From assembly GCA_031255515.1 (NCBI GenBank), contig JAIRSI010000063.1, positions 1,239 to 65,238 on the forward strand: DNA of 64,000 bases. The letters run 5' to 3'. The notes under the pieces were generated by a model. The model saw only the letters and a program-made list of their open reading frames with translations. It was not told the DNA's origin and did no database searches. The translations under genes were made by a program, and so were the position numbers. Shown here one piece after another: positions 32,434 to 52,970 of the stretch. Source of the stretch: Oscillospiraceae bacterium (lineage in GTDB: Bacteria; Bacillota; Clostridia; Oscillospirales; Acutalibacteraceae). Each line of letters opens with the position of its first letter. Position 1 is the first letter of the stretch.

Positions 32434-32462
32434 ATGTTACGCTATCCTTTACACGATATCAA
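32434..32462 (-). promoter_or_regulatory. Possible internal sigma-A promoter ahead of the ABC exporter genes
   Basis: TTGATA-17 nt-TAACAT on the minus strand, inside the only sizeable (118 nt) gap in the operon. Confidence 0.3.
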
Positions 32463-32477
32463 ATCAAATATACACCA

Positions 32478-33350: not shown

Positions 33351-33369
33351 GACTAATTTTCCTCCTTTA

Positions 33370-34319: not shown

Positions 34320-34346
34320 ATCGTACCTCCTATAATCTAAAATGTT

Positions 34347-34994
34347 CTACCCTTCTTTATAATTAACTTGAGCGTCTTTTTCACCAATATCAAATATTTT
34401 TTTACTTACAATAAAATCAAATACAGGCATATGAATCTGAACTGAAGATATTCTTAATTTCCCGACTTCTTTGCATGATTCAGTGGCTACATTTAAATGA
34501 AGATAAGCCATTTGATGGTAGTCTAGCAATGCCATCCTAAATAAATTCATAGTTGAATAGTTTACATGCATATTAATAACGCCATCGGATACATCAAGAG
34601 CAATATTGCTTATACAAGGAGTTGGTACATTTTCTCTGTTATCTTTATTTGGGTCATATATAGGTATCACAATAGGTTTGATATTTTTTCTTTTTTTAAT
34701 AATTTTAATAGCATATTCATACTGATTAATTTGATTTGGGCCAAAGGAATAAAGACGATTTATTTCAGAATGCTTTCCGGGAGAAGTAATTTGAGATAAG
34801 TAATATTCACGGTTTCTCAGTTGCCATGGGCAAAAAGCACTTAACGTTGGTTCTACTGTATAGTTCTGTGCTTGAACTGTAAGGTTGTCCAAAAGTAAGT
34901 ATTCTTTTCCACACATGTTTCTTGAATAAGCATTATTAAGAAAGTATCTCATTGCTTCTTCCCAACATTTATTTATTGATGATTCAATAATCAT
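34347..34994 (-). CDS. Short divergent thymidylate-synthase-fold protein (TS-like 2)
   Basis: 215 aa. VPTPCISNIALDV...NYSTMNLFRMALLDY aligns without gaps to TS-like 1 from the catalytic Cys to the Asp. Cys and Asp are kept, but RSxD reads STxN. Confidence 0.55.
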   Translation of the reverse strand: MIIESSINKCWEEAMRYFLNNAYSRNMCGKEYLLLDNLTVQAQNYTVEPTLSAFCPWQLRNREYYLSQITSPGKHSEINRLYSFGPNQINQYEYAIKIIKKRKNIKPIVIPIYDPNKDNRENVPTPCISNIALDVSDGVINMHVNYSTMNLFRMALLDYHQMAYLHLNVATESCKEVGKLRISSVQIHMPVFDFIVSKKIFDIGEKDAQVNYKEG

Positions 34995-35039
34995 TACCTA
35001 CCTCCATCCAATTATTTATATATTTGTTTAATTAAGCAG

Positions 35040-35648
35040 CTAAACAATTCGTCTTGTCTCATATTCTCGAATGACATTGGCATACGCTTCACATATTTCT
35101 CTATTATTCTTGATAAGAATGGCTTTTTCATTTTCCATTGCATATTTACAATAAAGTTTTTTTAAGCGTCTCAAACAAAGGATATTTTCAAATTCGTTAG
35201 CTCCTCCTCTACTCTGAATTCGCTTTTCAATTAAATCCATTTCAGAATCAATTACAAATGTTAAATCTGGTTCAAGACACATGCTATAAACGATGTTGGT
35301 AAAATCATTTTCTGCTATCCAAACTTTAGCATATAGTTGTTGACATATTGCCCATCGATCTAAAATTATTACCTTATTAGAAGAATCCGAATCTTTAATA
35401 TCTTCAGAATTTTGTAATAAATCAAATCCCATAATATAAGACCCAATAACATTCAATTCATGTTTTTTATTTGGATATTTTTCAAAAAATTCTTTTCGTA
35501 CCATGTTATAGTTTTTTGCGAATGTAGTATCAGGTCGCAATGCTTTTATGATAGTTACTGTTTTGCCTGTTTGCTTTAGATACTCTGCAAATTTGGACAA
35601 TAATGTTGTTTTTCCGGTTCCATCAACTCCAACGAAGGCAATTATCAT
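35040..35648 (-). CDS. dTMP-kinase-like P-loop nucleoside monophosphate kinase
   Basis: IAFVGVDGTGKTT P-loop, VIILDRW, PDLTFVID and a LID-like RIQSRGG in thymidylate-kinase order. Confidence 0.7.
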   Translation of the reverse strand: MIIAFVGVDGTGKTTLLSKFAEYLKQTGKTVTIIKALRPDTTFAKNYNMVRKEFFEKYPNKKHELNVIGSYIMGFDLLQNSEDIKDSDSSNKVIILDRWAICQQLYAKVWIAENDFTNIVYSMCLEPDLTFVIDSEMDLIEKRIQSRGGANEFENILCLRRLKKLYCKYAMENEKAILIKNNREICEAYANVIREYETRRIV

Positions 35649-35662
35649 GCTAAAACTCCTTC

Positions 35663-36523
35663 CTATATATTTACATAATTTATCATTATAGGTTTATATT
35701 TATTTTTCATCCAATTTTCTCCACCATTGATTTTGGTCTCGTATTCTTGAAGAGAAATGTCTCCGAGTATAAATTTTTTAAAAAGAGACACTTCGGTAAA
35801 AGGATGTTTGTTGAAAAAAATCTGGTGGCTGCTGTTAACGTGATCTTTATAAAATCCCGAATTTCTTAAATGGGCGATATGTATATTTTCAGCTTTCTCG
35901 TTACTCATAAAAACTACATTATCTTTTTTCAGTCGGTAACCCAATTCAAAATGTTCAAATCCCCAAGATTTAAAATCACAATCAAATCGATGTTCGGCTA
36001 ATGTGGATTTCTTTAAAGCCATATTTCCTGACAATGTAGAAAGCCAACATAAATGACTGTCTGTTTTTCCAGATTCATCGTAAATTTGTGAAATAACTTT
36101 ATAATAAATGGATTTGCGTTTAATAATCTTTTCTGTATTTACCTTTAGCTTGTCAATGCTGTCATATGTTTCAGTTAAATATCCTATACTCAAAATAGCA
36201 TCCTGTGAATCAATTAAATTCATATGTGATTCTATAAAATTAGGAACAGGCAACCGATCACAATCACAAAAAATAATAAATTCGCCTTTGGAGATATCTA
36301 TAGCAATGTTTCTGGTATACGCCCGGCCTTTATTTGTTTTGTTCTTTATATATTTAATTTTTAATGAATTATAGTTGTTAATTACAGATGGTTCATAATC
36401 TAACGATCCATCATCGACAATAATAATTTCGAATGGTTCTGATGTGGTTTGTCTGCAAAAATGCCACAGTGTTGCATCTAAAGACGGATATTGATTGTAT
36501 ACAGGAATAATAACACTAATCAT
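35663..36523 (-). CDS. Glycosyltransferase family 2
   Basis: ISVIIPVYNQ, IIIVDDGS and a DCD (DxD) motif. Confidence 0.85.
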   Translation of the reverse strand: MISVIIPVYNQYPSLDATLWHFCRQTTSEPFEIIIVDDGSLDYEPSVINNYNSLKIKYIKNKTNKGRAYTRNIAIDISKGEFIIFCDCDRLPVPNFIESHMNLIDSQDAILSIGYLTETYDSIDKLKVNTEKIIKRKSIYYKVISQIYDESGKTDSHLCWLSTLSGNMALKKSTLAEHRFDCDFKSWGFEHFELGYRLKKDNVVFMSNEKAENIHIAHLRNSGFYKDHVNSSHQIFFNKHPFTEVSLFKKFILGDISLQEYETKINGGENWMKNKYKPIMINYVNI

Positions 36524-38054
36524 AACTAACCTCTTTTTCTGAAGTAATATTGTTAATTATGGCAATTACATCCTCAATTAATTTGTCACGAGTCTGTGCG
36601 GACATTGCTAATCCTTGTTTATCGTTTACATATTTAATTTTTTCGCCTATGCAATACTCTTCTTTATTTACAAACGCATATCCATTACACTCGTTAAGCA
36701 TTTGATTGATTTCAAACTCGGATAACTTTTTTAAAAAATCAGTTGACAAATTAATGCCTTTACTCCTATTTAGGATATTTCCAAGGATGCAACATTCATA
36801 CTCAGCCCACGCATAATTATCGTAAAGATCACTTGTATCAATTACCGAAACCAACTTATCACTATTCGATAAATAGTTCCATATGTTACTCTTTTCTGGA
36901 AATAGCATTATTTTATGATCAAAAATTTCCTTATTGGCAAATAATAAATAATTGCTAAAACCCGAAGCGACACCGATTACTTTTGCGTTAGGTGCTCTTT
37001 TTTTAAGGTAGTTAGCAACAAACAATAATATTTCTTGCGTGGAATCATATGCTAAATCTTCACTTTTCCCATCGCTGTCTCCAGATGACGGAAAATCAAA
37101 CATGCAAATATTGTATTCTTTGTGAAGTATATTGGCCATTTGAGTAAACAAAAATCCCGGACCTGATTTATTTTGAAATAATCCGTGTAAAAACAAAATA
37201 TAAGTTGATGACTGTCCTGTTTCTACTAATTTTAAGCAAATACGATTTTCCCCTGTGTGTAAAAAAAATTCTTGCCTTTTTGGAGATATAAGGTTAATTT
37301 TTTTATGATGCCACTGAACTAAAAGATCACTTAAATTTTGAACCCATACATGTTTTGTATATAGGTGATCTGCGTGTGATATTATTTCGTGTGGCCATTT
37401 TTTCTGAATCCAGAAATCTCTGCTGTTTTTTGATGTGTCATCGTTTGCAGAATATATTCCAAAATAGTCAACTTGCTCATCTAAATTACATTTATCAATA
37501 AAATATTCCTTGTACTTTTCCACCACACTCCAATTAATCCATGTTCCAAGATTACTATCATAAACCATGTTTCCATTTTTTATTTTTGGACGACTTATTT
37601 TATCCAGGTATGATTCTTCAACACACAATCCATTACATGACAAAATAGCAGCAATGTCATTTCGTTTACTTGCAGCGTGAAATGCAAACTTCAATCCTTC
37701 GCTAAATCCTACATAAATAACTTTATTTATAAAACCAAATGAATTTAAAAATTGACTCGTAATTTCATCTAATTGAATAATAAATGAATCAAAATCATTT
37801 TCTGAATAATTTCCAAAATTGCTACCACCACCCAAAAAATCAAAACGTAAAACTGAAAATCCATTCATACTTAAATTTCTGGCAATTCGTGTAAACATAG
37901 CACGCGAATCACCACGATCACCAAATATTCCAGGTATTATAATCGTTACGTATGGATTTGATAAATCGAATGTAGTATGCAAAACAGCATTTATTGTTTC
38001 AGATTTATAATTAAAAGCCAAATTTATTTCATTTGTTCGTTCATTCATTAGCAT
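36516..38054 (-). CDS. Tandem double alpha/beta-hydrolase-fold protein
   Basis: Two ~250-aa halves. The first has GFSEG (GxSxG). The second has LFLHG...DFPSSGDSDG but only GVASG at the nucleophile elbow. Confidence 0.65.
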   Translation of the reverse strand: MLMNERTNEINLAFNYKSETINAVLHTTFDLSNPYVTIIIPGIFGDRGDSRAMFTRIARNLSMNGFSVLRFDFLGGGSNFGNYSENDFDSFIIQLDEITSQFLNSFGFINKVIYVGFSEGLKFAFHAASKRNDIAAILSCNGLCVEESYLDKISRPKIKNGNMVYDSNLGTWINWSVVEKYKEYFIDKCNLDEQVDYFGIYSANDDTSKNSRDFWIQKKWPHEIISHADHLYTKHVWVQNLSDLLVQWHHKKINLISPKRQEFFLHTGENRICLKLVETGQSSTYILFLHGLFQNKSGPGFLFTQMANILHKEYNICMFDFPSSGDSDGKSEDLAYDSTQEILLFVANYLKKRAPNAKVIGVASGFSNYLLFANKEIFDHKIMLFPEKSNIWNYLSNSDKLVSVIDTSDLYDNYAWAEYECCILGNILNRSKGINLSTDFLKKLSEFEINQMLNECNGYAFVNKEEYCIGEKIKYVNDKQGLAMSAQTRDKLIEDVIAIINNITSEKEVSYD

Positions 38055-38274
38055 ATTTATTCACCATGCTTAAAATAGAGTTTACTGACGACATGTTTTC
38101 TACAGTTAAATCATTATCATCAATTTCGATACCTAGCTTATCTTCAACAATTGTAACAAGTTTCAGTACACCTAAAGAATCTAAACCATGATTAAACGGA
38201 TTAATAGAATAATTATGTATTTTAGTTCCAATAACTTCTTCAATAATTTTGACAATTTCCTCAGCATTAGACAT
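38041..38274 (-). CDS. Free-standing acyl/peptidyl carrier protein (CP3)
   Basis: 77 aa with GLDSLGVLKLV phosphopantetheine Ser motif. Confidence 0.85.
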   Translation of the reverse strand: MSNAEEIVKIIEEVIGTKIHNYSINPFNHGLDSLGVLKLVTIVEDKLGIEIDDNDLTVENMSSVNSILSMVNKYANE

Positions 38275-39219
38275 TTAATCACCTTCCTGCATTAATGCAT
38301 TTAAATTTTTTGAGCATATTACACGTACAAGCATTAATAAATATTCTTTCATACTTGGCATTCTTATTAAAAACCTAATATTTTCAGCATGCCTGATTAA
38401 ATCAATTACGCAATGTACTTGCATATAATAATGTATTTTTTTTTCAATATCTGTTGGGGATGTATTCTCATAATAACTATTGATAAATGCTTTTATTTGT
38501 TGAAGCCTTCCTGGGTGCACTTCAAACTTTTTTGACCCAGAATACATAAAAGATAGAACTGTATTTGCAACATCCTCGATAGAATCTCCGTAACGTATAG
38601 TATCAAAATCAATTAAACATACCTCTTCGTCGTTTAAGATCATGTTTTCCAAGATAGTATCACCATGTATAACAGTCTGGTTACTGTTGGAGTAGTTATC
38701 AATAATATTGTATAGATTTTCTTTGCATGAAAGAATTTCTTGTTTGATTGAATAAGAACCATTATTGAAATTCAAAAAAAGGTCTTTAGCGCTATTTAAT
38801 TTTTCTTCAGTACTAATCAAATCAGGAAGTAGCTTAGATGTAGCAACGCCATGATATTTTTTTAAACAATTTGCTATTTCTTTATACTGGTTTATAGAAG
38901 GACGATTCCCTTTAATATACTCAAAAACAACACAATATCTGTTTTCTAAACTGATATGAAATTCGTCTGAATCTAGCCTTCGTAATGGGCATCCTATTGA
39001 AATACCTAATTCTCGTAGTTTCCAGTAATATCCCCACATTTGAAATAACTCTTTTAATGAAAAAGTTTCTGCGTAATCTTTCACTATGTACTGATTACCG
39101 TCAAAAGTGTTTACTAAAAAGCTTTGACGGAACATTAGCCTGTCAATTATTTTTACATCTATGATTTTTAATCCATAGTATTTATTGAGACTCTCTATCA
39201 GTTGCTGCCATGTGAACAT
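38275..39219 (-). CDS. APH/choline-kinase-fold phosphotransferase
   Basis: VIHGDTILENMI (HxDxxxxN) and LIDFD motifs. Confidence 0.8.
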   Translation of the reverse strand: MFTWQQLIESLNKYYGLKIIDVKIIDRLMFRQSFLVNTFDGNQYIVKDYAETFSLKELFQMWGYYWKLRELGISIGCPLRRLDSDEFHISLENRYCVVFEYIKGNRPSINQYKEIANCLKKYHGVATSKLLPDLISTEEKLNSAKDLFLNFNNGSYSIKQEILSCKENLYNIIDNYSNSNQTVIHGDTILENMILNDEEVCLIDFDTIRYGDSIEDVANTVLSFMYSGSKKFEVHPGRLQQIKAFINSYYENTSPTDIEKKIHYYMQVHCVIDLIRHAENIRFLIRMPSMKEYLLMLVRVICSKNLNALMQEGD

Positions 39220-39223
39220 ACTT

Positions 39224-40087
39224 TCAGTCCTTTATATTATGTGTTGTGTAACTTTTATTTTTCAAAACTTCAACAAATTGTTTCCAATAAGAATTTAATA
39301 AGCTAATATTTTGTACAGTCTCATTTTTTCTGAGTGCGCGTTCTGTTTCTAATATCAAAGATATCTGTTCGCTATTGACAGATTCAATTGTCATGCTAGG
39401 CATACTTTGATTATCAGCATCTTTAGTTTTTTTAAGACAATCAAAAATATTGAAATTTCTTTCGTATATGTGTAAGCTGCCTACCATGTGGGTATATGAA
39501 CCCAATTCAACATTCAACTCTATTGCTAACATTTCTTGTAGCATAGTAAAACTAAAAATATCATAAGGCATGCCAAGATATATATCATTAGAGCGCATGT
39601 ATGTAACAGCATTTAACTGCTTATTACGAATGAAATATTGCAGAACACATGTACACGGTATATCTAACGAAGATGCAAACAAATCACGCGGTTGATATAT
39701 TGATATTACAGCTTGCCTTGAATCAGGGTCTTTAGATAAAATATTCTTAACCCATTCCCATTGGGAAAGCTTACCTCCGAATATTCTTGTACCATATGCA
39801 CCGTTAACAGTAATTTTATCATCAGAAAAATTAGGATATATTTTACTGTAGTACTCCATAATATTTAGTCTGTCGCTTCCTCTTAGATACCAAAGAAATT
39901 CACCGAAAGCAAACGATAAACTCATTTTTCGGACAGAATTATTCGTAATCCTATCTCTTGGATTTTTTATGGAAAACGAAACACCTAAACATTCTTTTAT
40001 TTTCATTCCACGTGGACTGGACTCGAATGCAGATTTTAATTGGTTCACATGATATATGAACGCTTCGTTTACATTTTTAAAAATCAT
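39224..40087 (-). CDS. Thymidylate-synthase-fold pyrimidine-nucleotide C5 (hydroxy)methylase with Asp specificity signature (TS-like 1)
   Basis: AFGEFLWYLRGSD, catalytic Cys in DIPCTCVLQYF, and MRSNDIYLGMPYDIFSF (canonical PFN replaced by PYD). ATG 40087 overlaps the upstream TGA (ATGA). Confidence 0.8.
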   Translation of the reverse strand: MIFKNVNEAFIYHVNQLKSAFESSPRGMKIKECLGVSFSIKNPRDRITNNSVRKMSLSFAFGEFLWYLRGSDRLNIMEYYSKIYPNFSDDKITVNGAYGTRIFGGKLSQWEWVKNILSKDPDSRQAVISIYQPRDLFASSLDIPCTCVLQYFIRNKQLNAVTYMRSNDIYLGMPYDIFSFTMLQEMLAIELNVELGSYTHMVGSLHIYERNFNIFDCLKKTKDADNQSMPSMTIESVNSEQISLILETERALRKNETVQNISLLNSYWKQFVEVLKNKSYTTHNIKD

Positions 40088-41577
40088 AATGTCACCCCAT
40101 CTGTAAATCGTTTGGTCTTGCCGTTGTATGTTCTGCAAATATTTTTCACAAAATTAAAGCATTTTGGAATTTTGTAATTGCTTAAATTTTTCGAGCAAAC
40201 AGATTTAAGTTGCTGAATGATTTCCACATTATCAGAATTTGATACAATGTCTGCATGAACTACTTCGCCAAGCAAATCATCGTTAACTCCATATACTTTT
40301 ACATCCATGATACCCGGGTAAGTTGAAATCACTTCTTCTACTTCCTCAGGACATATGTTTTGTCCTCCAGAAATAATTATATTTTTCTTTCTACCAACTA
40401 AATACAAATATCCATCTTCTGAAAGATATCCTATATCTCCCGTATATAGCCACTCACCACGTATTATAGCTTTTGTTTCTTCTATACATTTGAAGTATCC
40501 TTTCATGATTCCCTTACTTTTCACAATTACTTCTCCTGTTACACCTTTTGGAAGCGGCGATCCAAGAGTATCAACAATTTTTATTTCGACTTTAGGAATC
40601 GCACATCCTACAGAACCAATTTTTTCGATATATTGAGAAGGAGGCAATGTTGTAACCCGTGGACCTGCTTCGGTTAATCCATATGTTTGGACAAAAGCAA
40701 TTGACGGGAACTTTTTTATAATATCTAGTAATTGAGACTTTGGAATTGGATTGCCTCCAAAACATATTATTTTTAACGATGAGATATTATAAGATAACAG
40801 TTCACTATTGCATAAAGCGATCAAAATTGTAGGCACCGCAGTAAAATTTGTAATACTCCACTTTTCTATTATTTTATAGAAATCAGCCACCATAAATGGG
40901 TTTGGGTTAATCACAATGCAAGCACCTAAGTATACATGTGCTAAAAATTGGGCTGTATTGCAATACCCAAACATCATAGGAAGCTGTATCAAACAAACTT
41001 CATTAACATCAAACTTTAATGATTCACAATGGGATTTAATATTACTCAATAGCCCTTGATTGGTTAGCATAACTCGTTTTGATTTTGATGTTGTTCCAGA
41101 TGTATGCAATAGAACCACAACATCGTCAAGCTCATTTTCATTAAGAACGGTTGAAGAAACACTATTGGTATATAATTTAATATTTCTTTGAATCTCAGCA
41201 CAATCATTTATTACAATGAGGTTCATATGAAGCTTATTTGTATGTACTAATGCTTCAATCATGGGAAAATATACTTCTGTTGTTATTAAAGTAAAAATCT
41301 CACAGTGTTTTATTGTATCTAATAATTCATTCATTGTAGTACTTGTATGAAATGGTGCAATTACCTTGTCCGCATAAAGACAAGCAAAATAACTAATAGC
41401 ATATTCAATACCATTTGGTAAAAATAACCCTACTATTTTTTCATGTTTGTCTTTTAATGCTTCATTACTAAGTTTATCAGAAAGCTGATGCCATTGCTTG
41501 TATCCCAGTGCAATCTCTCCACACACAATGGCGATCTTATCAGATTCTTTAAGCCTTATCAAAAGATTGCAAACCAT
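40084..41577 (-). CDS. ANL-family adenylating enzyme (acyl-CoA/acyl-carrier-protein ligase)
   Basis: HTSGTTSKSKRV, QTYGLTEAG, YTGDIGYL..GRKKNIIISGGQNI and a C-terminal NGKTKR. Confidence 0.85.
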   Translation of the reverse strand: MVCNLLIRLKESDKIAIVCGEIALGYKQWHQLSDKLSNEALKDKHEKIVGLFLPNGIEYAISYFACLYADKVIAPFHTSTTMNELLDTIKHCEIFTLITTEVYFPMIEALVHTNKLHMNLIVINDCAEIQRNIKLYTNSVSSTVLNENELDDVVVLLHTSGTTSKSKRVMLTNQGLLSNIKSHCESLKFDVNEVCLIQLPMMFGYCNTAQFLAHVYLGACIVINPNPFMVADFYKIIEKWSITNFTAVPTILIALCNSELLSYNISSLKIICFGGNPIPKSQLLDIIKKFPSIAFVQTYGLTEAGPRVTTLPPSQYIEKIGSVGCAIPKVEIKIVDTLGSPLPKGVTGEVIVKSKGIMKGYFKCIEETKAIIRGEWLYTGDIGYLSEDGYLYLVGRKKNIIISGGQNICPEEVEEVISTYPGIMDVKVYGVNDDLLGEVVHADIVSNSDNVEIIQQLKSVCSKNLSNYKIPKCFNFVKNICRTYNGKTKRFTDGVTL

Positions 41578-41580
41578 AAT

Positions 41581-43869
41581 TCACCTCATTTTTATTGTTT
41601 TTTTAGAATTATTTATATAATCATCCGTGAGTTTCTCAATAGCTTTTCTGTCTATTTTCCCGTTAGGGGTTATAGGTATAGCACTTGTCAGTATAATGTG
41701 CGCCGGAACGTGACTTTTTGGTAACCATTTTATAAGATGATCAATTAATTCAGTTTCTTTAGGTATACTTCGTTTTGATTTATACTCAGCATGCACTACT
41801 ATTTTCCTACTAGTTCCAACTTTTGGAGCAGTTGCAACGACTCGGTTAATACCTTCACAATTTGACAGACAGTGCTCTATTTCTCCTAACTCTATTCTCG
41901 CACCGTTTATTTTAACTTGGAAATCCATTCTACCTAATAAAATGAGGTTTCCATCTGGTTTAAAATAAGCTAAATCTCCTGTTTTATATATCCGTTGTTT
42001 TGGATCATCAGCCCAAGGATTATCAAAGAAACGTTCCATTGTGGCTTCGGGGTTCAAATAATACCCATCACCAACACCTACTCCACCTAGGTACAATTCT
42101 CCGGGAAAACCAATTGGCATTAATTGTCTATTTCTATCTAATACATATGCTTTTTGATTGTACATAGGTTTCCCATAAGGAATTCTTTTCCAATCTGGAT
42201 TAACTTGTTCAATTTGATAAATTATTGAATCCATGGAAACTTCGGTGGCACCACCAAGGCTAATCATTGTTGATTGATTATTTATCAAGCGAAAATTATC
42301 CGGTAAAGATAATGGTATCCAATCGCCACCTAACAAAACTACTCTAATAGAATCAGCTCTCATCAATTTTCGATGCTGTGCACATTTACAAAAAAGATCC
42401 AACAAAACTGGAACAGAATGCCATATTGTAACATTATATTTTTGTATTAAATCAAGCCAGTGAAATGGCTGTTTTTCTAACAATGGATCTGGTAAAACAA
42501 TGCTACTTCCTGCCATCATACTACCTAAAACATCGTATGCACTCATGTCAAAACTAACTGATGAGATGGCTAGCACCTTATCCTTATTTGTGATTGAAAA
42601 GCGTGAATTAAAATCGTGAAAATTACTAACACGACCTTCGTGATTCAACAATACTCCTTTGGGTTGACCCGTTGAACCAGAAGTATATATCAGGTAACAT
42701 GGATCGCGCGGACTAACATTAATATTAGGACTGTCAACAGGATAATCTAATAACTCTTCGTCTTCAGAATTAATTTTTACGATTTTAATGTTGGTCATCA
42801 TTGTATAATTATCCCCTGGGTCTACTGCAGTAACTACAACAGATACTTTCGAGTTGGCAAGAATGTATTCAATGCGGGATTGCGGATAAGACGCATCAAT
42901 TGGCAAGTAAGCACATCCAGCCTTCAATATACCCATAATTCCGATTACAAAATTAATGGATTTGTTGGAATATAGGGCAACTATGTCGCCTGTCTTTACT
43001 CCAGATTGAACTAATTGGTGCGCTAATTGGTTAGCTCGCTTATTCAGCATTTCTCTCGTCATGGTTTTATTTTCATAATACACCGCTATAGCATTAGAAT
43101 CTTCCAAAACTCTTTGCTCGAATAATTGATGAATGCAACGTTCTTTTGGGAATTTAAAATCAGTTTGATTCCAAATATCTACTAAAGTTTCCTTTTCATC
43201 TTTACTTATATAATGTGCTTTACAGATCAATATATCGGAGTCTTCCATTACGCAAGACGACAATTGATCGTAGTGCAACGCCATACGACGAATGTGTTCT
43301 TCTGAATATGCATTTTTGTTATATATAATATTTAGAACAATCTTTTCATTTATATTAACAATCTGAAAACATATATCTGTTTTAATATTATTTTGATCAA
43401 TATTTATTTGAAAATCCAAGGAGTTGGTGTATTCAAATAAACAATTAGTATAATCTGATGTTTTTTCTAAAACAGAATTTAGCAGTTCTTGCTCAAAGGT
43501 AAATACCATTTTCTCCTTAACTATAAGTTTTATTAAATCATTGAAGGTTAATTCATTGTCACACAATGTACTTGCAATAAAAACAGATGAATCTTTGTTA
43601 AAATTCTGTAGACAAATACCTGTTAACATTTCGTTTTGAGTATACCGCATCATCAAAGATAAAAATACACCGAAAAAATAATCTTGTGGGCTAGGATATT
43701 TTTCGATTTTATTTTTAACTTGCGGATTTAACGAATACTGATAAATTGCATAATTTTTATTATTAATGACTTTAGGTGATGTACTTTTGTATAATTCAAA
43801 ATAACCATCCAAATACTTATCAAGTTTGTTTTCTATTTTTTCAATAATAACATTATTGCCTTTACTCAT
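41581..43869 (-). CDS. NRPS adenylation protein with N-terminal truncated condensation-like region and no carrier domain
   Basis: A3 YTSGSTGQPKG, A4 FDMSAYD, A5 SLGGATE, A6 GELYLGGVGVGDGY, A7 YKTGD, A8 GRMDFQVKINGARIELGEIE, A10 PNGKIDRK. About 250 N-terminal aa lack HHxxxDG. Confidence 0.9.
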   Translation of the reverse strand: MSKGNNVIIEKIENKLDKYLDGYFELYKSTSPKVINNKNYAIYQYSLNPQVKNKIEKYPSPQDYFFGVFLSLMMRYTQNEMLTGICLQNFNKDSSVFIASTLCDNELTFNDLIKLIVKEKMVFTFEQELLNSVLEKTSDYTNCLFEYTNSLDFQINIDQNNIKTDICFQIVNINEKIVLNIIYNKNAYSEEHIRRMALHYDQLSSCVMEDSDILICKAHYISKDEKETLVDIWNQTDFKFPKERCIHQLFEQRVLEDSNAIAVYYENKTMTREMLNKRANQLAHQLVQSGVKTGDIVALYSNKSINFVIGIMGILKAGCAYLPIDASYPQSRIEYILANSKVSVVVTAVDPGDNYTMMTNIKIVKINSEDEELLDYPVDSPNINVSPRDPCYLIYTSGSTGQPKGVLLNHEGRVSNFHDFNSRFSITNKDKVLAISSVSFDMSAYDVLGSMMAGSSIVLPDPLLEKQPFHWLDLIQKYNVTIWHSVPVLLDLFCKCAQHRKLMRADSIRVVLLGGDWIPLSLPDNFRLINNQSTMISLGGATEVSMDSIIYQIEQVNPDWKRIPYGKPMYNQKAYVLDRNRQLMPIGFPGELYLGGVGVGDGYYLNPEATMERFFDNPWADDPKQRIYKTGDLAYFKPDGNLILLGRMDFQVKINGARIELGEIEHCLSNCEGINRVVATAPKVGTSRKIVVHAEYKSKRSIPKETELIDHLIKWLPKSHVPAHIILTSAIPITPNGKIDRKAIEKLTDDYINNSKKTIKMR

Positions 43870-43887
43870 ATAAGTCACTTCCTTTGT

Positions 43888-45252
43888 TTAATAGTTTGTT
43901 TCATATCCAGGTATAGGATATTCCTTACATAATTCACTAACTTTATGTAGCACATCAGACTTAACAGTATCATCAATTTTGAAATCTTCTAAATTATCGC
44001 CATGTATGTGGTTCAGAACATCAGCAATTATATAAGCGCATTTTTTTACAGCATCGGCTGACATTTTTCTTTGTGCCATATTATTTGTACCAATACGAAT
44101 ACCGGCTGGTCTTTTTGATGTATTTTTACCGTTTATCTTTTTATTTGGAACACTATTTCTATTAACAATAATTCCGCATTCTTCAAGTGCCCTTTCAGCA
44201 ACATCACCGCTAATATTTTTACTGGCAAGATCGACAAGTACTATATGATTATCTGTGCCACCAGAAATAACGTCAAAACCTATATTTTGTAAGTGTTCGG
44301 CAAGTATTTTAGCGCTGTCAACTATCCGCTGCATTGTTTTTTTGAATCCTTCTGATGCGGCTATGTCAAATGAAATTGCTTTAGCTGCAATTTGGTTCAT
44401 TATTGGTGCACCCTGAAAAAATGGAAATACTGCTTTTTGTAGTTTCTCCTCCAATGTCATATCCTCATCAAATAACTTTCTCTTAGCATCTTTGCCAGAT
44501 AAAATTAAACCGCCTCTTGGTCCAGCAAGTTGTTTATGAGTACATGTTGTTGTTATATGCGCATAATCAATAGGTGACTCATGCAAATCTGCGATTACTA
44601 AACCAGCTATGTGTGATATATCGGCTAACAAATATGCTCCTACTTTATCAGCGATTTCTCTAAAGCGCTTAAAATCGATTTTTCGGCAATATGCAGTCGT
44701 GCCACATATAATCATTTTTGGGCGATGCTGTAATGCCAGTTCCTCAATCTTGTCGTAGTCAATAAGATAATTTTCATCTAATCCATAACGAACAACTTGA
44801 AAATCAGATCCTGAATAAGATACTGAAGCACCATGAGTTAAGTGCCCACCTGACGTTAAATTCATTCCCATTATTAAGCCACCTGGTCTGACTAAGGAAT
44901 ATGTAACAATTTCATTTGCCGTTGTAGCTGAATGTGACTGGACATTTGCATAAGCGGCTTTAAATATTTTTTTGGCATTTGAAATTGCCAATTCTTCAAT
45001 TTTATCCATTTCTTCGCACCCAGCATGGTATCTTACATGAGGATACCCTTCGGCTGTTATATTAACTGCAGGCATGCCCGTACATGCAAGAACGCTTGGC
45101 GGAACAATGCTGCAAGACGCCACCATCATTAATACAGATTTTTGTCTTTGATATTCTCTTTCTAAAACTTTCATGAAACTTGGATTTATTTCTTTAATTT
45201 GCTCAACACCATACGCTAAAAGCTCTGATAGATTTTTTGATGAATTACCCAT
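43888..45252 (-). CDS. Serine hydroxymethyltransferase-fold PLP enzyme (divergent GlyA paralogue)
   Basis: GGHLTHG, TTTCTHKQLAGPRGG (PLP Lys), VNRNSVP and AEGYP. ATG 45252 is preceded by GAGGAG. LIASEN reads MVASCS and RYYGG reads RYHAG. Confidence 0.85.
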   Translation of the reverse strand: MGNSSKNLSELLAYGVEQIKEINPSFMKVLEREYQRQKSVLMMVASCSIVPPSVLACTGMPAVNITAEGYPHVRYHAGCEEMDKIEELAISNAKKIFKAAYANVQSHSATTANEIVTYSLVRPGGLIMGMNLTSGGHLTHGASVSYSGSDFQVVRYGLDENYLIDYDKIEELALQHRPKMIICGTTAYCRKIDFKRFREIADKVGAYLLADISHIAGLVIADLHESPIDYAHITTTCTHKQLAGPRGGLILSGKDAKRKLFDEDMTLEEKLQKAVFPFFQGAPIMNQIAAKAISFDIAASEGFKKTMQRIVDSAKILAEHLQNIGFDVISGGTDNHIVLVDLASKNISGDVAERALEECGIIVNRNSVPNKKINGKNTSKRPAGIRIGTNNMAQRKMSADAVKKCAYIIADVLNHIHGDNLEDFKIDDTVKSDVLHKVSELCKEYPIPGYETNY

Positions 45253-45253
45253 A

Positions 45254-45514
45254 TTATTTCTCCTCACTATGTGTTTTTGTTTTTTCAAGCATTTGCTCTA
45301 TTATAGAGACCAACTGACCTATAGTTTTGTAATTATCATAAACTAATTGTGTATCTTCAAACCTAATATTAAATTCTTCTTCTAATGCAATTATCATTGT
45401 TATAAATTCAACTGAATCAATTCCGATTTCCAGAAGAGAAGTATCATCGTTAATAACAGCAGAATGGCTCACGTTTCGTTTTATTACATCATATATTGTT
45501 TCTTTCATTATCAT
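45254..45514 (-). CDS. Free-standing acyl/peptidyl carrier protein (CP2)
   Basis: 86 aa with IGIDSVEFITMI Ser motif. Confidence 0.8.
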   Translation of the reverse strand: MIMKETIYDVIKRNVSHSAVINDDTSLLEIGIDSVEFITMIIALEEEFNIRFEDTQLVYDNYKTIGQLVSIIEQMLEKTKTHSEEK

Positions 45515-46476
45515 TATACGCCTCCTATTTTATTTGATAGCACTATATTTATTGCTTGTCTTTCAATATCTGCAATCTGTGTTATCATTTTAGATATTGT
45601 TCCTCTATCGTTGTTTATTGAATTAGTTATATACGTTTTTAGTAGTTTTCCTTTTGCGGTTTTCCATAAAGTTACACTTTGTCTTAATAAATTCGAAGCC
45701 TCTTTTAAGTATTTTAATTTGAATAACTTATATATATAATCCAGCATACATATATAGGCATCACGGTACATTGCAACTTTTCTTATTTTGTCTAAGATTG
45801 GAACGGTTTGTAGATCATTTTTGAATTCATCAAATTCATAATTAATATCCATTTTAGTGCAAATATCACTCGCTAATTGTCTAATATTTGTGTCATTTTC
45901 ATTATCTTGATTTACTGTAATTATATCTTCTTGAATGACTTTGATATAATTTTCCATACTGTTTTTCTTAGGTAATTCTAAAAATATTAACTTAGCATAT
46001 TTGTTAATGCCAGAGTATAAATCTTCTCTTGGTATATTATATTTAGCATATTGGAAATAAGGATCAATACAAATATAAGTTTCAGTTTTAAAGTCATATT
46101 CGCTAATAATAATATAATGTGAAAAATGATATTTTTGATATGCTGTTGAACCTTTTAAATAATACAGATCAAAGCTTCCTATAGATGGATATGTAAATTC
46201 TTCAAAGTGTTCTTGATTATTGAAGCGACCATCTTCTAGTATCTCTACTTCCCAAGTAAATCCGTGAAATTGCCCAGCCCTATCAGAAGCATCGATTTGA
46301 TTGATAATATCGATTCGTTCACCTACTCTTTTATTACTTTCAGCGACATCATACTTTAGTTTCCAGTCACTACTCGATATCATATGGTAGTCTCGACCAT
46401 AATATTTAGCTAAAGTAGCAATAACTGCAAGAAAGCAATTATAAACGCCTACATTTTTAATATGTTCAAATATCAT
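45514..46476 (-). CDS. BtrH_N-like (papain/C39-fold) putative carrier-protein-dependent transferase, copy 1
   Basis: N-terminal Cys motif YNCFLAVIATLAKYYG, later HFSHYIIISEYD. ATG 46476 is preceded by GAGGTG (ORF track GTG at 46485). Confidence 0.45.
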   Translation of the reverse strand: MIFEHIKNVGVYNCFLAVIATLAKYYGRDYHMISSSDWKLKYDVAESNKRVGERIDIINQIDASDRAGQFHGFTWEVEILEDGRFNNQEHFEEFTYPSIGSFDLYYLKGSTAYQKYHFSHYIIISEYDFKTETYICIDPYFQYAKYNIPREDLYSGINKYAKLIFLELPKKNSMENYIKVIQEDIITVNQDNENDTNIRQLASDICTKMDINYEFDEFKNDLQTVPILDKIRKVAMYRDAYICMLDYIYKLFKLKYLKEASNLLRQSVTLWKTAKGKLLKTYITNSINNDRGTISKMITQIADIERQAINIVLSNKIGGV

Positions 46477-46503
46477 AGTCAACACCTCTCTTCACTCATA
46501 AAA

Positions 46504-47592
46504 TCACATGCCTTCAAAGGCTTTACCTTGAGCTATTTTAAATTTCATTTCTTCATCAAAATATTTATCAAATAAACTGTCTCTATCAATACAGAAAAGT
46601 CTTTCCATAAAGCTATTTTTCCAAATAAAATGTCCTTCATTATCTAGTCCAAAACTATTCAAAAACTCTTCATTCGGTACTTGCAAACCAGTAATAGTTA
46701 ATAAAGAATCATCTCGAAAGACAAATGCTGTATAATATAAAACGTACATAATGTATCTCTCAACTTTATAATTAATGCAAATCGATCGAAACTTTTCCCA
46801 AGAAATTTTAGACCGTTTAATAAATCCGTAAATATCAGCAAAATATTTCAATCTATACGCATAAATTTTATAAAGCACATATACAGAATTCATATCAAAG
46901 TATGCATGTAAGCACATGTGCAGAAACATATATTCATCCTGAAATGTTTTAACTTTAAAACCTTTATAATCAACTATCTGCGAATTGTCAATCAATTTTG
47001 ATGTGTCCCAGGAATCACTTTCATTCCAAAAAATATTAAAATTTAAATCCAAGTTCACTACCGGCACTAGCTCATTACCAGTTTCTTTTAAAAAAGGAGC
47101 TGATTGCTGTGTATATGAGAGATAGAACAATTCTTGTTGTCGGGAAAAATTTTTAATTGTTTTTGTTGTTGGATCGTAAACTCCTTGTTTATATCCATAA
47201 TTATCAAGAATATTTTTTACTTTTGAATAATCTTCACGTTTTATGATAACATCTAAATCATCGGAACGCCTATAACTTTCATCGATATAAGCAGTTTTAG
47301 CTGCATATATCCCCTTGGTGGTAACATAATCTATGTTGGATTTTTTGAATTCATCTGCAGCTGGATCAAAATGAATAAAATTTTCGTGGTATCTTTTTAA
47401 ATTCTTTTGTTTTGATATTTGATTAGCTAAACGATGATTTCTATCAAGCTGCATTGCATCACTAATTAGCAAACCTACATCGTGTTGGTGAGCAAGTTCT
47501 AACAATGGCTCATTTTGAGGATATTGTGATGGCATAGATTCGTTACAAAAACATGTTCTCAACATTTCCAATAATAAATTTTGCAATACCAT
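46504..47592 (-). CDS. Uncharacterised nucleotidyltransferase family protein (NTP_transf_5-like)
   Basis: KGIYAA...YRRSDDLDVIIKRED..V..L...GY, VNLDLNFNIFW and LHMCLHAYFD, as in the PF14907 pattern. Confidence 0.55.
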   Translation of the reverse strand: MVLQNLLLEMLRTCFCNESMPSQYPQNEPLLELAHQHDVGLLISDAMQLDRNHRLANQISKQKNLKRYHENFIHFDPAADEFKKSNIDYVTTKGIYAAKTAYIDESYRRSDDLDVIIKREDYSKVKNILDNYGYKQGVYDPTTKTIKNFSRQQELFYLSYTQQSAPFLKETGNELVPVVNLDLNFNIFWNESDSWDTSKLIDNSQIVDYKGFKVKTFQDEYMFLHMCLHAYFDMNSVYVLYKIYAYRLKYFADIYGFIKRSKISWEKFRSICINYKVERYIMYVLYYTAFVFRDDSLLTITGLQVPNEEFLNSFGLDNEGHFIWKNSFMERLFCIDRDSLFDKYFDEEMKFKIAQGKAFEGM

Positions 47593-47638
47593 ATATCCAT
47601 CTCCTGGAACTAATTTTGTATTATAATCATCTTAAAAC

Positions 47639-49558
47639 CTAATCACTAAACATGATATTGTTTATCGATGAAATGCGAAGTAATTTTTCAACATCAGATT
47701 TTTTCGTTATATCGATATTTTCTTTTAGACTATAATTTGAATAATAAAACTCAACAACTTCTTTTGACAGACAATAAGGATTATATTTCTCAAACAATAT
47801 TTTATCTGCCGTTGGATCATATTCGCGATAAAATTCCGTCCATCTCCCCAATGGTGTTTCAAGTTTATATTCATCAAAGTTTTTTAGTTCAATTCTGTAC
47901 CCATTAATGTATATATGTTCTATTCCTTTCCGCAGCCCAAAATTCAACGCTTCCGATGCTTTATTAATTATTGGCTCACCTTTATCGTTCAAGGAAGTAT
48001 TGCATAACAATGGAACAGACGTTTTTTTGTGAAATGCTTTGAGAATATCGTATACAATTGCATTATTTTCTCTTTTTATTGTTTGAACGCGAGCACTTTG
48101 ATCTATATGAGATATTGCAGGAATTTGGTGCAATTTATCTGAATGAATTTTAAATGTGTGAAGCATAAAAGGAGATTCGTATGCACAATCAAACCATTCA
48201 TTTAAGTACTCAAACATAACAATTGGAGCAACTGGCCTCCACCATTGTCTCTGTTTAATTTTATTTAAATTATTTTTAGAATCTACGGAGCGCGCATCCG
48301 CAAGAATACTTCTTGATCCTAATGCTCTTGGACCAATTTCACTTCTACCTTCAAACCAGATAATTGGTGATTCAATAATATCATCAGTAAGCGTGTCAAA
48401 ATCTAATTCTTTTACACTTTTTATATATGGTTTCCATTGTTTATCGCTAATTATTTCATTTAATTGCTTTTCTTCGTCTCCGTAATATGGATGGTTCATA
48501 TTAAAATTTATCTTATTAATGTATTTATTGAATGCATATAGAGCCATTCCTAGCGATTGGCCTGTATCACTAACGCACGGTGGAGCTAAGAAACCTTTAA
48601 ATTTAAAATGTTCCATTAACCAATTATTACACATACAATTTAGTGCATATCCTCCTGAAATAGACAAATATGAATCTTTTGTATCAATATTATATTTTTT
48701 GGAAATTAAACTAATAGTTTTGCACATCATATGTATAGATTGTTGCTGAATAACCTTCATAACCATACTTACTTTATTATCCTCAATAGTAAATCGATCA
48801 TCAAATTTATTTACTTTAGTACCACAATCTGAAATATTAATTACATCATCATTTAGTTTTTCAAGCCATTTATACCCAGCGTAAGCCGAATTTCGATCTT
48901 CTATTTCTGGAGCATCTTCACATTCTAATAGATACTCGCTAGATGATGCGCTTGCCAAAGCCATCAAGGAACCCTGCTCCATTTTATATTTGTTTTTGGC
49001 AAAGGTCCACAACAAGGCTGGCGAAGATACGTGAAATACTTCTACTATCTCACCTTTTTTAACAACGCATCCGGCATAAAATTTTTTGTTCATTGCTTTT
49101 GAATCTATTACTTGATCAGGACCACCGTCAACTGCTAGACATATAATTGTATCGTTATAGAATACCTCTGTATTAATAAGTAGTGATGAAAATAAATGTG
49201 CAATACTGTGATATGTGAATTCTGAAAACTCACTTAAAGAATGGTACTCTATAGAAGTAAGCTTACACAATTCCGGCGTTCCCCATATATCATTTATGTC
49301 ATTTAAATTGAGTCCATATGCGGACAACAAACTGTTAATTAATTTTTCTGCATTGGACACACTAAACAAAGACTGACCATGTTTTTTATACCCTGTTAAT
49401 CGTTCAATTTCCCAATAGTGAATTAAACTTATTTTATCTGATTCTTTTTTCCACAAAGAAATATTTTGGTCATGCCTAACTACAGCTTTTGTTATGCAAC
49501 ACAATGGATCTATGTGTAAGTATGCTGCTAAGTAATATCCATCCTTAATTTCTTTCAT
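47639..49558 (-). CDS. Carbamoyltransferase, NodU/CmcH/TobZ family
   Basis: SGGYALNCMCN, EGRSEIGPRALGSRSILAD, WWRPVAPIV, HIDQSARVQT and LCNTSLNDKGEPI. Confidence 0.9.
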   Translation of the reverse strand: MKEIKDGYYLAAYLHIDPLCCITKAVVRHDQNISLWKKESDKISLIHYWEIERLTGYKKHGQSLFSVSNAEKLINSLLSAYGLNLNDINDIWGTPELCKLTSIEYHSLSEFSEFTYHSIAHLFSSLLINTEVFYNDTIICLAVDGGPDQVIDSKAMNKKFYAGCVVKKGEIVEVFHVSSPALLWTFAKNKYKMEQGSLMALASASSSEYLLECEDAPEIEDRNSAYAGYKWLEKLNDDVINISDCGTKVNKFDDRFTIEDNKVSMVMKVIQQQSIHMMCKTISLISKKYNIDTKDSYLSISGGYALNCMCNNWLMEHFKFKGFLAPPCVSDTGQSLGMALYAFNKYINKINFNMNHPYYGDEEKQLNEIISDKQWKPYIKSVKELDFDTLTDDIIESPIIWFEGRSEIGPRALGSRSILADARSVDSKNNLNKIKQRQWWRPVAPIVMFEYLNEWFDCAYESPFMLHTFKIHSDKLHQIPAISHIDQSARVQTIKRENNAIVYDILKAFHKKTSVPLLCNTSLNDKGEPIINKASEALNFGLRKGIEHIYINGYRIELKNFDEYKLETPLGRWTEFYREYDPTADKILFEKYNPYCLSKEVVEFYYSNYSLKENIDITKKSDVEKLLRISSINNIMFSD

Positions 49559-49839
49559 TTGCTTTCTCCTTTACTGCAGTAATTGTTTAGTAAAGCAAAT
49601 AACTTTGTAAAAGTATTAAGTTTTTCAATTAGCAAATCCTCATCTTTAAGAGAAAAATTGTACTTTTCTTCAAACATAACAACTAATTGAATGCAAGAAA
49701 TAGACGTCATTCCGTGTGCCATCAAATCTTCATCTTCTTTTATATTTTTTACATTTTCAATGTCAACACCTAAAAGTTTTGATATCATTTTATAAACATC
49801 ATTTTTACATATCTTCATTAAACATTCCCTGCCTTTCAT
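49555..49839 (-). CDS. Free-standing carrier protein (CP1)
   Basis: 94-aa ORF (the start may be ATG 49818) with HGMTSISCIQLV in carrier-protein helix II context. Its stop overlaps the carbamoyltransferase ATG. Confidence 0.65.
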   Translation of the reverse strand: MKGRECLMKICKNDVYKMISKLLGVDIENVKNIKEDEDLMAHGMTSISCIQLVVMFEEKYNFSLKDEDLLIEKLNTFTKLFALLNNYCSKGESK

Positions 49840-49868
49840 AAAATCATTTATATTTTGTAGCTACCGAA

Positions 49869-51431
49869 TTACATGATTTTGAATTTAATTAAATCTCGTA
49901 TAAGTTTATTTTTAAGAATATCTAACTCTTTGTCGAAATTTTTTAAAGTTGACATGAACTCGTCATACCGCTTTTCACACAAACCTATGTTCATGTCCAT
50001 ATAAAGTATACGGAAGTAATCACTGAAAACTCTGGAACGTCTATTCATTATTGAAGTCACATCTTCTTCAAAAGTTTTCCCGTGGGGAAGAAAAGGAGCT
50101 AAATGAAAAATAAATGTAGAAATTCCTGCAGTTTCTGTATCAAATATTAAAAAATACTTACGCAGAAACGTAGATACTTCGGCCGCAAACGGATGTAAAA
50201 AACGGTATGAATGTCCTTGTTTTAGAAAATCGTCAGTAGGAATTAGTAGACCATCTTCTTCGATTTTTTTCCTACTCATTGTTCCTGGATCTGCAACTAA
50301 ATGATGAACATAGTTGTCTAAATCATGTGGCTGATGTTCCTCTAAAAAAAGAAAATTTGCTCTGAGTCTTTCCGGTGTGGAATATGGGTTAATCATAATA
50401 AATCCATAATGATCTGAATAAATACCAGCTTCATTTAACTTCTTTAAAGCAAGTCTGTTTTTTTCAATAGTGGTTGCTTTATTATATAGTTTTAAATCAT
50501 ATTCATTCCCAGACTCCACACCTATTAATACTGCATGAAATCCGGCTTTTTTCATTAACTTAAATAAATCTGTATCAACTTTAGAAATAAAATTACTACG
50601 CAAATAGCAACGCAAGCTAACTTTCAAGTTGCTTTCAAAAATAAGATTACAAAAATCCTTAATCTTCTTTATACCTAATTCGCCACCAGGATCTTCGAAA
50701 CTTCCTCCTATAAGCCAAAAACATTTAATCGATGATTCATTACGTATTGTTTTAATTTCATTAAAAATACTTTCGGCTGATCGTCCAGTCCATTTTTTAT
50801 AGAACTGCCCACGAGTACAATACGCACATCTCATACAACATCCATGACTATCACAGATAAATGCATAGTAGTTATTATAAAAATTTTTACTATTTTTGAT
50901 AAAAAACCTGTCTGGAAGAGGTAATTCATTTATATCTATATTTAAAAATTCTTTATTATCGGTACTTTCTTTTGATACAATATTTTTGTGTTCTGCAACA
51001 AATTTAGATATATCATCGTTTTTGTTAATACAATCTATAAGTGAAGATAAAGTATATTCACAGTCCCCTAGAATAATATAATCAATATGCGAAAAACGCT
51101 TATCTTTAAGTATTTCTTTGTAGTAAATGGAGGCATACTTACCACTTAGTACAACTATACTATTTGGATTTTCACTTTTTATTTTATCGCCCAATTGGGA
51201 AAAAAACAAAATGTCATCAGGATATACTGACGATTCAGAATAAACGGACATCACATACAATTTACCACTAAAATCCAAGCAATAACAGCACTGATTGTCA
51301 ACGTCCATACCACCGCTGAAATGCGCATGGTTAGTTTTATATCCCTTTTCTGATAAATATGTTTTTAAACGCCCAGCTTCTATGTTTTCCAAACCATCAG
51401 TAGATCTTGATATTAATGTCGTTTTAATCAT
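49869..51431 (-). CDS. B12-binding-domain radical SAM enzyme (class B)
   Basis: CCMRCAYC (CX3CX2C) preceded by a ~180-aa Rossmann-like cobalamin-type domain. ATG 51431 is preceded by GGGGA. Confidence 0.8.
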   Translation of the reverse strand: MIKTTLISRSTDGLENIEAGRLKTYLSEKGYKTNHAHFSGGMDVDNQCCYCLDFSGKLYVMSVYSESSVYPDDILFFSQLGDKIKSENPNSIVVLSGKYASIYYKEILKDKRFSHIDYIILGDCEYTLSSLIDCINKNDDISKFVAEHKNIVSKESTDNKEFLNIDINELPLPDRFFIKNSKNFYNNYYAFICDSHGCCMRCAYCTRGQFYKKWTGRSAESIFNEIKTIRNESSIKCFWLIGGSFEDPGGELGIKKIKDFCNLIFESNLKVSLRCYLRSNFISKVDTDLFKLMKKAGFHAVLIGVESGNEYDLKLYNKATTIEKNRLALKKLNEAGIYSDHYGFIMINPYSTPERLRANFLFLEEHQPHDLDNYVHHLVADPGTMSRKKIEEDGLLIPTDDFLKQGHSYRFLHPFAAEVSTFLRKYFLIFDTETAGISTFIFHLAPFLPHGKTFEEDVTSIMNRRSRVFSDYFRILYMDMNIGLCEKRYDEFMSTLKNFDKELDILKNKLIRDLIKFKIM

Positions 51432-51469
51432 AAAAATCCCCATTCCTGTTTTAATTTAACCGTGAATCA

Positions 51470-52894: not shown

Positions 52895-52970
52895 TGGTGG
52901 AAGTGAGGGGAGTCGAACCCCTGACCTCTTGCATGCGAAGCAAACGCTCTCCCAACTGAGCTACACTCCC
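52895..52970 (-). tRNA. tRNA-Ala (anticodon CGC), CCA encoded
   Basis: 76 nt fold into a cloverleaf: acceptor GGGAGTG/CACTTCC with G3:U70, D-arm GCTC-AGTTGGGA-GAGC, anticodon loop TTCGCAT, T-arm AGGGG-TTCGACT-CCCCT. Confidence 0.95.

Follow-up and report, generated by a model that had tools for sequence, protein, structure and literature searches.

The serine hydroxymethyltransferases (SHMTs) PbzB, AsmD, FmoH, and XvbB have recently been set apart from housekeeping GlyA as PbzB-type enzymes, defined by a TAEG..RYH signature where GlyA reads YAEG..RYY (PMC10098953). PbzB is the SHMT of the benzobactin pathway of Pseudomonas chlororaphis subsp. piscium, and its structure is deposited as 7QCW (wwPDB validation report, supplement of Shi et al. 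2022, PMC10098953). The main text and Table S7 of that paper print the code as 7QWZ, whereas the deposited entry and the validation report carry 7QCW. PbzB converts Gly or Ser to 2-hydroxymethylserine while consuming methylene-tetrahydrofolate (methylene-THF), its kcat is 4200-fold below that of GlyA, and replacement of its signature residues T68 and H78 in the T68Y/H78Y variant abolished activity (PMC10098953). AsmD acts in ashimide biosynthesis in Streptomyces sp. NA03103, where asmC and asmD overlap in a stop/start arrangement and AsmC, predicted by software to be Cys specific, prefers glycine in vitro (PMC6427947). The serine position of ashimide is labelled by 15N-glycine and not by 13C-serine, deletion of asmD abolished the product, and AsmD converts Ser-S-N-acetylcysteamine (Ser-SNAC) to Gly-SNAC with THF (PMC6427947). 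Here, we examine an SHMT gene in a 64,000-nucleotide stretch of the Oscillospiraceae bacterium contig JAIRSI010000063.1 (assembly GCA_031255515.1), hereafter the window, where it lies between the genes of a free-standing peptidyl carrier protein (PCP2) and of a nonribosomal peptide synthetase (NRPS) protein with a condensation-domain remnant and an adenylation (A) domain (the C*-A protein). By its sequence, this window SHMT is a member of the already known PbzB/AsmD-type family. We propose that, together with the A domain and PCP2, it probably puts a glycine-derived seryl, possibly 2-hydroxymethylseryl, unit on PCP2 through methylene-THF-dependent Calpha-hydroxymethylation.

The minus-strand frame from 45252 to 43888 is stop-free in translation over 454 codons. 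Its product matches the Pfam SHMT model (PF00464) along its whole length with 411 bits and NCBIfam PRK00011 with 463 bits (cut-off, 335), and the motifs MMVASCSIVP, NITAEGYP, RYHAGCE, GGHLTHG, TTTCTHKQLAGPRGG, and VNRNSVP that a first-pass annotation had quoted are all present exactly. The best match among solved structures is 7qcw_A at 430 bits, followed by canonical SHMT structures at no more than 365 bits, and PbzB has the same unusual motifs in the forms VASCC, NVTAEG, and RYHAGC. The window SHMT reads NITAEGYP..RYHAGC with T66 and H76 at the signature positions, and its flanking by PCP2 and C*-A places it in an NRPS cluster, as PbzB is; both also have intact folate and pyridoxal 5'-phosphate (PLP) sites. 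The tyrosine substitutions that the first-pass annotation had flagged as a hint of transaldolase activity are thus the published signature of PbzB-type hydroxymethyltransferases. NVTAEG.. and R(Y/F)HAGC occur in all except 4 or 5 of the 120 relatives listed in our database search, the exceptions being truncated or not matched by the pattern, and VAS(C/S)S, NVTAEGYP, and R(Y/F)HAGC are invariant across a clade of 116 sequences. A scan of genome contigs with PbzB as the query returned mostly canonical GlyA, and only four loci (L007 to L010) were PbzB-type. Pseudomonas genomes, L007 among them, encode a 451-aa protein that is 96 to 97% identical to PbzB and carries T69/H79. Automatic annotation labels the whole clade plain "serine hydroxymethyltransferase".

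We compared active-site residues between 116 members of the clade with Thr and His at the signature positions (T/H-type) and 78 canonical GlyA sequences (Y/Y-type). Twenty-two alignment columns are fixed differently between the two groups, including N37S, Y55T, Y65H, G66A, G98A, S175T, T226C, T230Q, G263A, and P218D in GlyA numbering, and E36, an invariant Glu in GlyA, is Ser or Cys in the clade. Thr and His occupy positions 55 and 65 in 116/116 clade members and Tyr occupies both in 78/78 GlyA, and judged from this alignment, the substitutions are far beyond chance and are not drift. Kept in both groups are E57, Y64, L121, G125, H126, L127, D200, H203, H228, K229, R235, F257, P258, N347, and R363, and the window SHMT correspondingly has K240, D211, H137, H214, H239, R246, E68, Y75, L132, G136, L138, F276, P277, N366, and R386, which indicates that its folate, PLP, and carboxylate sites are intact. 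Across 26 key positions, it agrees with an AsmD-context homolog at 26/26 and with PbzB at 25/26, and the C-T-H-K motif at its PLP lysine is present in PbzB and in 115/116 clade members. Housekeeping GlyA (Escherichia coli 1DFO and the second copy in the source genome, described below) has the same fold and all of the PLP, folate, and carboxylate residues in common with the window SHMT, which differs in an N terminus longer by about 20 residues, a C-terminal extension, and the E36C/S change. The transaldolase-type enzymes ObaG, LipK, and Mur17 keep SEN and Y55 and lose E57, Y64, L121, L127, N347, and R235, whereas the window SHMT keeps E57, Y64, L121, L127, and N347 and loses E36, N37, and Y55, an alignment that is approximate at 24% identity. 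The transaldolases thus show the opposite pattern, and the substitutions mark folate-dependent hydroxymethyltransferases with altered acceptor pockets.

Phylogenies were inferred from quick IQ-TREE searches, and some of the literature sequences in them were derived by optical character recognition (OCR). A tree of 71 sequences separates T/H-type from Y/Y-type enzymes with a Shimodaira-Hasegawa-like approximate likelihood ratio test (SH-aLRT) value of 100 as a single state change, with the window SHMT within the T/H clade and the second SHMT of its genome among Firmicute and Actinobacterial housekeeping enzymes. A second tree added ObaG, LipK, Mur17, FmoH, the SHMT of the amicetin producer, and the alpha-methylserine hydroxymethyltransferases (MSHMTs) of Paracoccus and Aminobacter (Scott et al. 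2017 supplement, PMC5490192, with OCR noise). Its PbzB-type clade (100 SH-aLRT) comprises the window SHMT, the basally branching PbzB, FmoH, the amicetin-cluster SHMT, and homologs with AsmD-like gene context, and within it the window SHMT falls in an 11-member Firmicute subclade (100 SH-aLRT). FmoH (JBIR-34/35) and the amicetin-cluster SHMT of Streptomyces vinaceusdrappus (AEF16058) form a pair of their own (99 SH-aLRT) apart from that subclade, and ObaG, LipK, and Mur17 are a very remote outgroup (99 SH-aLRT). The window SHMT hence groups with PbzB and FmoH and not with the transaldolases, the alternative placement considered by the first-pass annotation. The MSHMTs of Paracoccus and Aminobacter carry T55/H65 on a branch outside the PbzB-type clade, which suggests that this substitution pair arose more than once. 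Sequence identity to the window SHMT declines from the AsmD-context homologs in L004 and L090 (52 to 53%) through FmoH (48%; 47 to 48% for FmoH and the amicetin-cluster SHMT together) and PbzB (45.5%, measured against the 97%-identical L007 copy) to GlyA (41 to 42%) and the transaldolases ObaG, LipK, and Mur17 (24%).

The source genome (1.22 Mb, 91.6% complete) contains two PF00464 matches, the window SHMT and a 548-bit match on another contig, C8. The C8 copy is a canonical glyA with LIASENF, NKYAEGYP, and RYYGGCE, and folD is present as well. The window SHMT reads SCS, TAEG, and RYHAG where a housekeeping GlyA has SEN and YAEG..RYYGG and is not the sole SHMT of its genome; the canonical glyA on another contig identifies it as a dedicated paralog. 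The proposal of the first-pass annotation that the gene is a recruited, non-housekeeping paralog therefore holds, since it is neither the only glyA nor placed with the housekeeping SHMTs but in a separate clade (100 SH-aLRT).

Gene arrangement ties the window SHMT to a carrier protein and an A domain. Only 1 nt separates the PCP2 stop codon (TAA, 45256 to 45254) from the ATG at 45252, and the C*-A gene starts 10 nt downstream of the SHMT gene (Table 1). The ribosome-binding site and operon coupling noted in the first-pass annotation were thus borne out, although the spacer is 1 nt and not 2 as it had stated. A longer frame with a TTG start at 45288 lacks a comparable ribosome-binding site. From this spacing, we read the window SHMT as translationally coupled to PCP2, a likeness to AsmD, whose gene is coupled to one that ends in a carrier domain. 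A second likeness is an A domain that is "Cys-like" by computation. AsmC, however, is a complete C-A-PCP(-TE)-type module (condensation, adenylation, carrier, and thioesterase domains), while the window A domain has a condensation remnant and a separate upstream carrier protein. PbzB differs further in that its partner A domain, PbzD-A2, is encoded two genes away and in that its cluster makes benzoxazolinate peptides and not a nucleoside-like product.

The 10-residue Stachelhaus code of the C*-A protein, read in a motif-anchored register, is DMYHLGLMDK. The identical code occurs in the SHMT-adjacent A domains of L003, L091, L088, and L089 (Firmicutes), L004 and L090 (actinomycetes), and L006. 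For an independent set, we retrieved 80 metagenome loci (L092 to L171) with the patterns N[VI]TAEGYP and CTHKQ[LI]xGP. Among the 49 near-complete A domains in these loci, 29 have DM[YW]HLG[LM]MD and account for essentially every first neighbor of the SHMT gene, and other A domains of the same loci carry unrelated codes. Of the 29 loci flanked by 3 kb or more on each side, 18 contain the code. We found no description of this cross-phylum invariance of the partner code in the literature searched. PbzD-A2 was expected to share it and was rejected, as its code is DMFAVACNWK.

The same partnership is conserved in related loci. Two homologous clusters (L003 and L091; SHMT identity, 68 to 80%) have the same gene order, including the thymidylate synthase-like (TS-like) gene. 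Two further Firmicute loci (L088 and L089; SHMT identity, 55 to 57%) retain of these genes only the SHMT, an A protein of 730 to 747 aa, one carrier, NTP_transf_5, APH-type kinases, a phosphatase, and exporters, and no TS-like gene was found within 10 kb. PCP2 is the carrier protein of the window most similar to the single carrier of these minimal triads. The SHMT gene overlaps the stop codon of a C-A-PCP-TE gene in the actinomycete loci L004 and L090, as published for asmC/asmD (PMC6427947), and that of an A-MT-PCP gene (MT, methyltransferase) in L006. The pairing of SHMT with A domain and carrier is thus seen in L003, L004, L006, and L088 to L091, and because the triad is kept in loci without a TS-like gene, the constant partner of the SHMT is the A domain with the carrier and not the TS-like enzyme. 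The scaffold genes of the minimal loci differ, with inositol-1-phosphate synthase and S-adenosylmethionine (AdoMet) synthase in L089 (1 to 21344) and adenosine deaminase, a DegT aminotransferase, and three radical SAM enzymes in L088 (1 to 21353), and these variant clusters suggest a product family in which a sugar or nucleoside is aminoacylated. A Chloroflexota metagenome-assembled genome (L005, 10001 to 14763) has a PbzB-type SHMT without an NRPS nearby, followed by a dehydrogenase, an ATP-grasp ligase, and a PALP enzyme, and may represent a carrier-independent use of the family.

Building on the observed family membership, the kept PLP, folate, and carboxylate residues, and the conserved gene pair, we infer what the enzyme acts on, when it does so, and where its product goes, as follows. 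The C*-A protein would activate glycine and load it onto PCP2. The window SHMT would form the external aldimine, deprotonate the alpha-carbon, and capture the methylene unit of methylene-THF with the help of E68, Y75, and N366, giving seryl-S-PCP2 or, after a second round, 2-hydroxymethylseryl-S-PCP2. In GlyA, Y55 and Y65 close a pocket that T66, H76, and A77 would widen in the window SHMT. The unit would then pass to the scaffold built by the cluster, perhaps by way of the adjacent papain/BtrH-like protein, for which the evidence is weak. In an alternative order, the same chemistry would act on free Gly or Ser before activation, as PbzB does, and the A domain would load the product. We tentatively consider the on-carrier order of the AsmC/AsmD model, in which glycine is loaded first, the more likely of the two, and the free-amino-acid order of the PbzB model possible but doubtful.

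Several observations weigh against this reading. The code DMYHLGLMDK mixes serine-type positions (H278 and D331) with glycine-type positions (L299, G301, and L322), which leaves the loaded substrate ambiguous. The A domains with the identical code in L004 and L090 belong to homologs that share the AsmD layout and not to AsmC itself, so that the likeness to AsmC is drawn through these homologs, and the link from the code to the glycine preference of AsmC would rest on similarity of layout and not on identity of code. PbzD-A2 differs from DMYHLGLMDK despite serving a PbzB-type enzyme, although it, too, groups with Cys-type A domains in the phylogeny of its authors (PMC10098953). L005, which has long flanks, and 10 or 11 of the 29 well-flanked metagenome loci have no DMYHLG-type A domain nearby. 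That AsmD acts on the carrier is supported by one SNAC assay, run in the reverse direction. The carboxylate-binding arginine (R363 in GlyA numbering and R386 in the window SHMT) is invariant in 116/116 clade members, which agrees better with a free than with a thioester-bound substrate and so favors the free-amino-acid route. The case for the function of the window SHMT is itself drawn from sequence and gene context. We also searched for NRPS proteins with a built-in SHMT domain, a find that would prove action on the carrier; a review reports none (PMC3870968), and the apparent overlaps of SHMT and A-domain open reading frames (ORFs) in metagenome loci look like spurious overlapping frames and not fusions.

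Among the other functions that we weighed, the best surviving, though improbable, is that of an alpha-methylserine synthase like FmoH and the amicetin-cluster SHMT, which are associated with alpha-methylserine formation from D-alanine; the window enzyme would use D-alanine and methylene-THF, and the A domain would load alpha-methylserine. Both of those enzymes lie in the PbzB-type clade, and T55/H65 seems to have arisen independently in the Paracoccus and Aminobacter MSHMTs. The window cluster, moreover, looks cytosine-nucleoside-like, as it encodes a TS-like enzyme and, beside the carrier, a papain/BtrH-like transferase. Amicetin, a cytosine nucleoside antibiotic bearing alpha-methylserine, is likewise a case in which a cytosine nucleoside receives an amino acid made by an SHMT. 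The residues at the PLP lysine argue otherwise, as FmoH and the amicetin-cluster SHMT have S-T-Y-K and the Paracoccus enzyme has T-T-T-K in place of C-T-H-K. The alpha-methylserine enzymes have accordingly lost H228, the His next to the PLP lysine, which the window SHMT keeps. This is a rule that we drew here from four sequences, some of them OCR-derived, and not a published one. In addition, FmoH and the amicetin-cluster SHMT pair away from the subclade of the window SHMT, and no alanine racemase was found within the island that carries the cluster.

The first-pass annotation had offered two functions, and neither fits well. A dedicated one-carbon (C1) supplier, converting Ser and THF to Gly and methylene-THF for the TS-like cytosine-nucleotide hydroxymethylase(s) of the cluster, would agree with the intact folate-binding residues, with two TS-fold genes in the same operon, and with the retention of both SHMT and TS-like gene in L003 and L091. 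We regard it as very unlikely, because the triad recurs in actinomycete NRPS clusters and in L088 and L089, where no TS-like gene lies within 10 kb, and because the SHMT gene is always joined to an A domain or carrier and not to a TS gene. Housekeeping glyA and folD are already present, PbzB is slow and works in the C1-consuming direction, and a plain supplier would have no need of fixed changes at Y55 and Y65, which bind the substrate. The cluster's TS-like gene is the only PF00303 match in the 1.22-Mb genome; canonical thyA was not found by this search, which does not cover thyX. The second function was that of a folate-independent aldolase or L-threonine transaldolase making a beta-hydroxy amino acid on a nucleoside or other aldehyde, and canonical SHMTs do have a side aldolase activity, while the cluster appears nucleoside-related. 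The SHMT fold has been recruited in this way in the PLP enzymes ObaG/ObiH, LipK/Mur17, and FTase, which serve biosynthetic clusters that in some cases make nucleoside antibiotics (PMC5490192), but these enzymes form a separate, deep, folate-independent clade to which the window SHMT is a remote relative (24% identity to ObaG, LipK, and Mur17; outgroup at 99 SH-aLRT) with an opposite residue pattern, its score with the FTase model TIGR04506 is 83.5 bits against a cut-off of 650, and its nearest characterized relatives are all THF dependent, which together make this function hardly credible.

The window SHMT lies on a horizontally acquired island, whose GC content between 26000 and 52000 is 0.29 to 0.33 as opposed to 0.37 to 0.41 in the flanks. 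The surrounding gene cluster is itself uncharacterized and looks like one for a cytosine-nucleoside product (Table 1). Its phosphopantetheinyl transferase would prime all three carrier proteins. Relaxed Pfam searches with the two papain-like proteins yielded C39 and BtrH_N matches below threshold only, and the protein of this pair that is encoded next to PCP2 is a candidate, on weak evidence, for a carrier-to-amine acyltransferase that would act on the PCP2-bound unit. The roughly 1.4 kb (51443 to 52895) that lead from the first cluster gene to the tRNA gene at the border contain short ORFs only and are presumably a promoter or regulatory region. No riboswitch or regulatory RNA was found upstream of the operon, this interval having no Rfam match, and a search of the window for att-type repeats (at least 12 nt) of the tRNA-Ala 3' end returned none.

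Table 1. Positions of the SHMT gene, its partners, and neighboring features in the window
Feature	Position	Strand	Basis or remark
Window SHMT (P0001), PbzB-type SHMT paralog, 454 aa	43888..45252	-	Translation, Pfam/NCBIfam, trees, residue alignment
Ribosome-binding site GAGGAG	45260..45265	-	7 nt before ATG 45252
Signature residues of the window SHMT: T66, H76, A77, C237, Q241, A282; PLP lysine K240			
Kept folate/carboxylate residues of the window SHMT: E68, Y75, L132, G136, H137, L138, N366, R386			
PCP2, free-standing carrier protein, 86 aa, GIDSVEF	45254..45514	-	PP-binding match
C*-A protein (partner of the SHMT), 765 aa: C-terminal-half condensation-domain remnant and complete A domain, without carrier domain	41581..43878	-	
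323-aa protein, weak papain/C39/BtrH_N-like matches	45514..46485	-	Position kept in L003, L091
Stand-alone adenylate-forming enzyme	40084..41577	-	AMP-binding and AMP-binding_C
TS-like enzyme, second methylene-THF consumer of the cluster	39224..40138	-	
Sfp-type phosphopantetheinyl transferase (PPTase)	27022..27732	-	
Co-directional gene cluster, about 24 kb, on low-GC island	27022..51443	-	ORFs, Pfam, GC profile
Cluster genes, first part: B12-radical SAM, PCP1, carbamoyltransferase, NTP_transf_5, papain-like protein, PCP2, SHMT, C*-A, A (acyl-AMP ligase), TS-like			
Cluster genes, rest: APH kinase, PCP3, double hydrolase, GT2, dTMP-kinase-like, HAD phosphatase, two ABC exporters, PPTase			
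tRNA-Ala(CGC) at upstream border of low-GC island	52895..52970	-	

The near-invariant partner code makes the question of a free or a carrier-bound substrate directly testable, and it may help to predict NRPS substrates that current tools miscall as cysteine. More speculatively, SHMT, an A domain with DMYHLG(L/M)MD, and a carrier may form a widespread portable cassette that converts glycine on the carrier to serine or bis-hydroxymethylated serine, here decorating a 5-hydroxymethyl-cytosine-type nucleoside scaffold. If true, this would settle the disagreement between AsmD (on the carrier) and PbzB (free amino acid), and genome mining for on-carrier Calpha-hydroxymethylation would gain a general marker in the A-domain code. 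A further implication would be a new family of seryl or peptidyl nucleosides from a gut Clostridia bacterium with a 1.2-Mb genome. For this uncharacterized cluster of a gut-associated Clostridia bacterium, our reading makes a concrete prediction, namely, a glycine-derived seryl or hydroxymethylseryl unit on PCP2.

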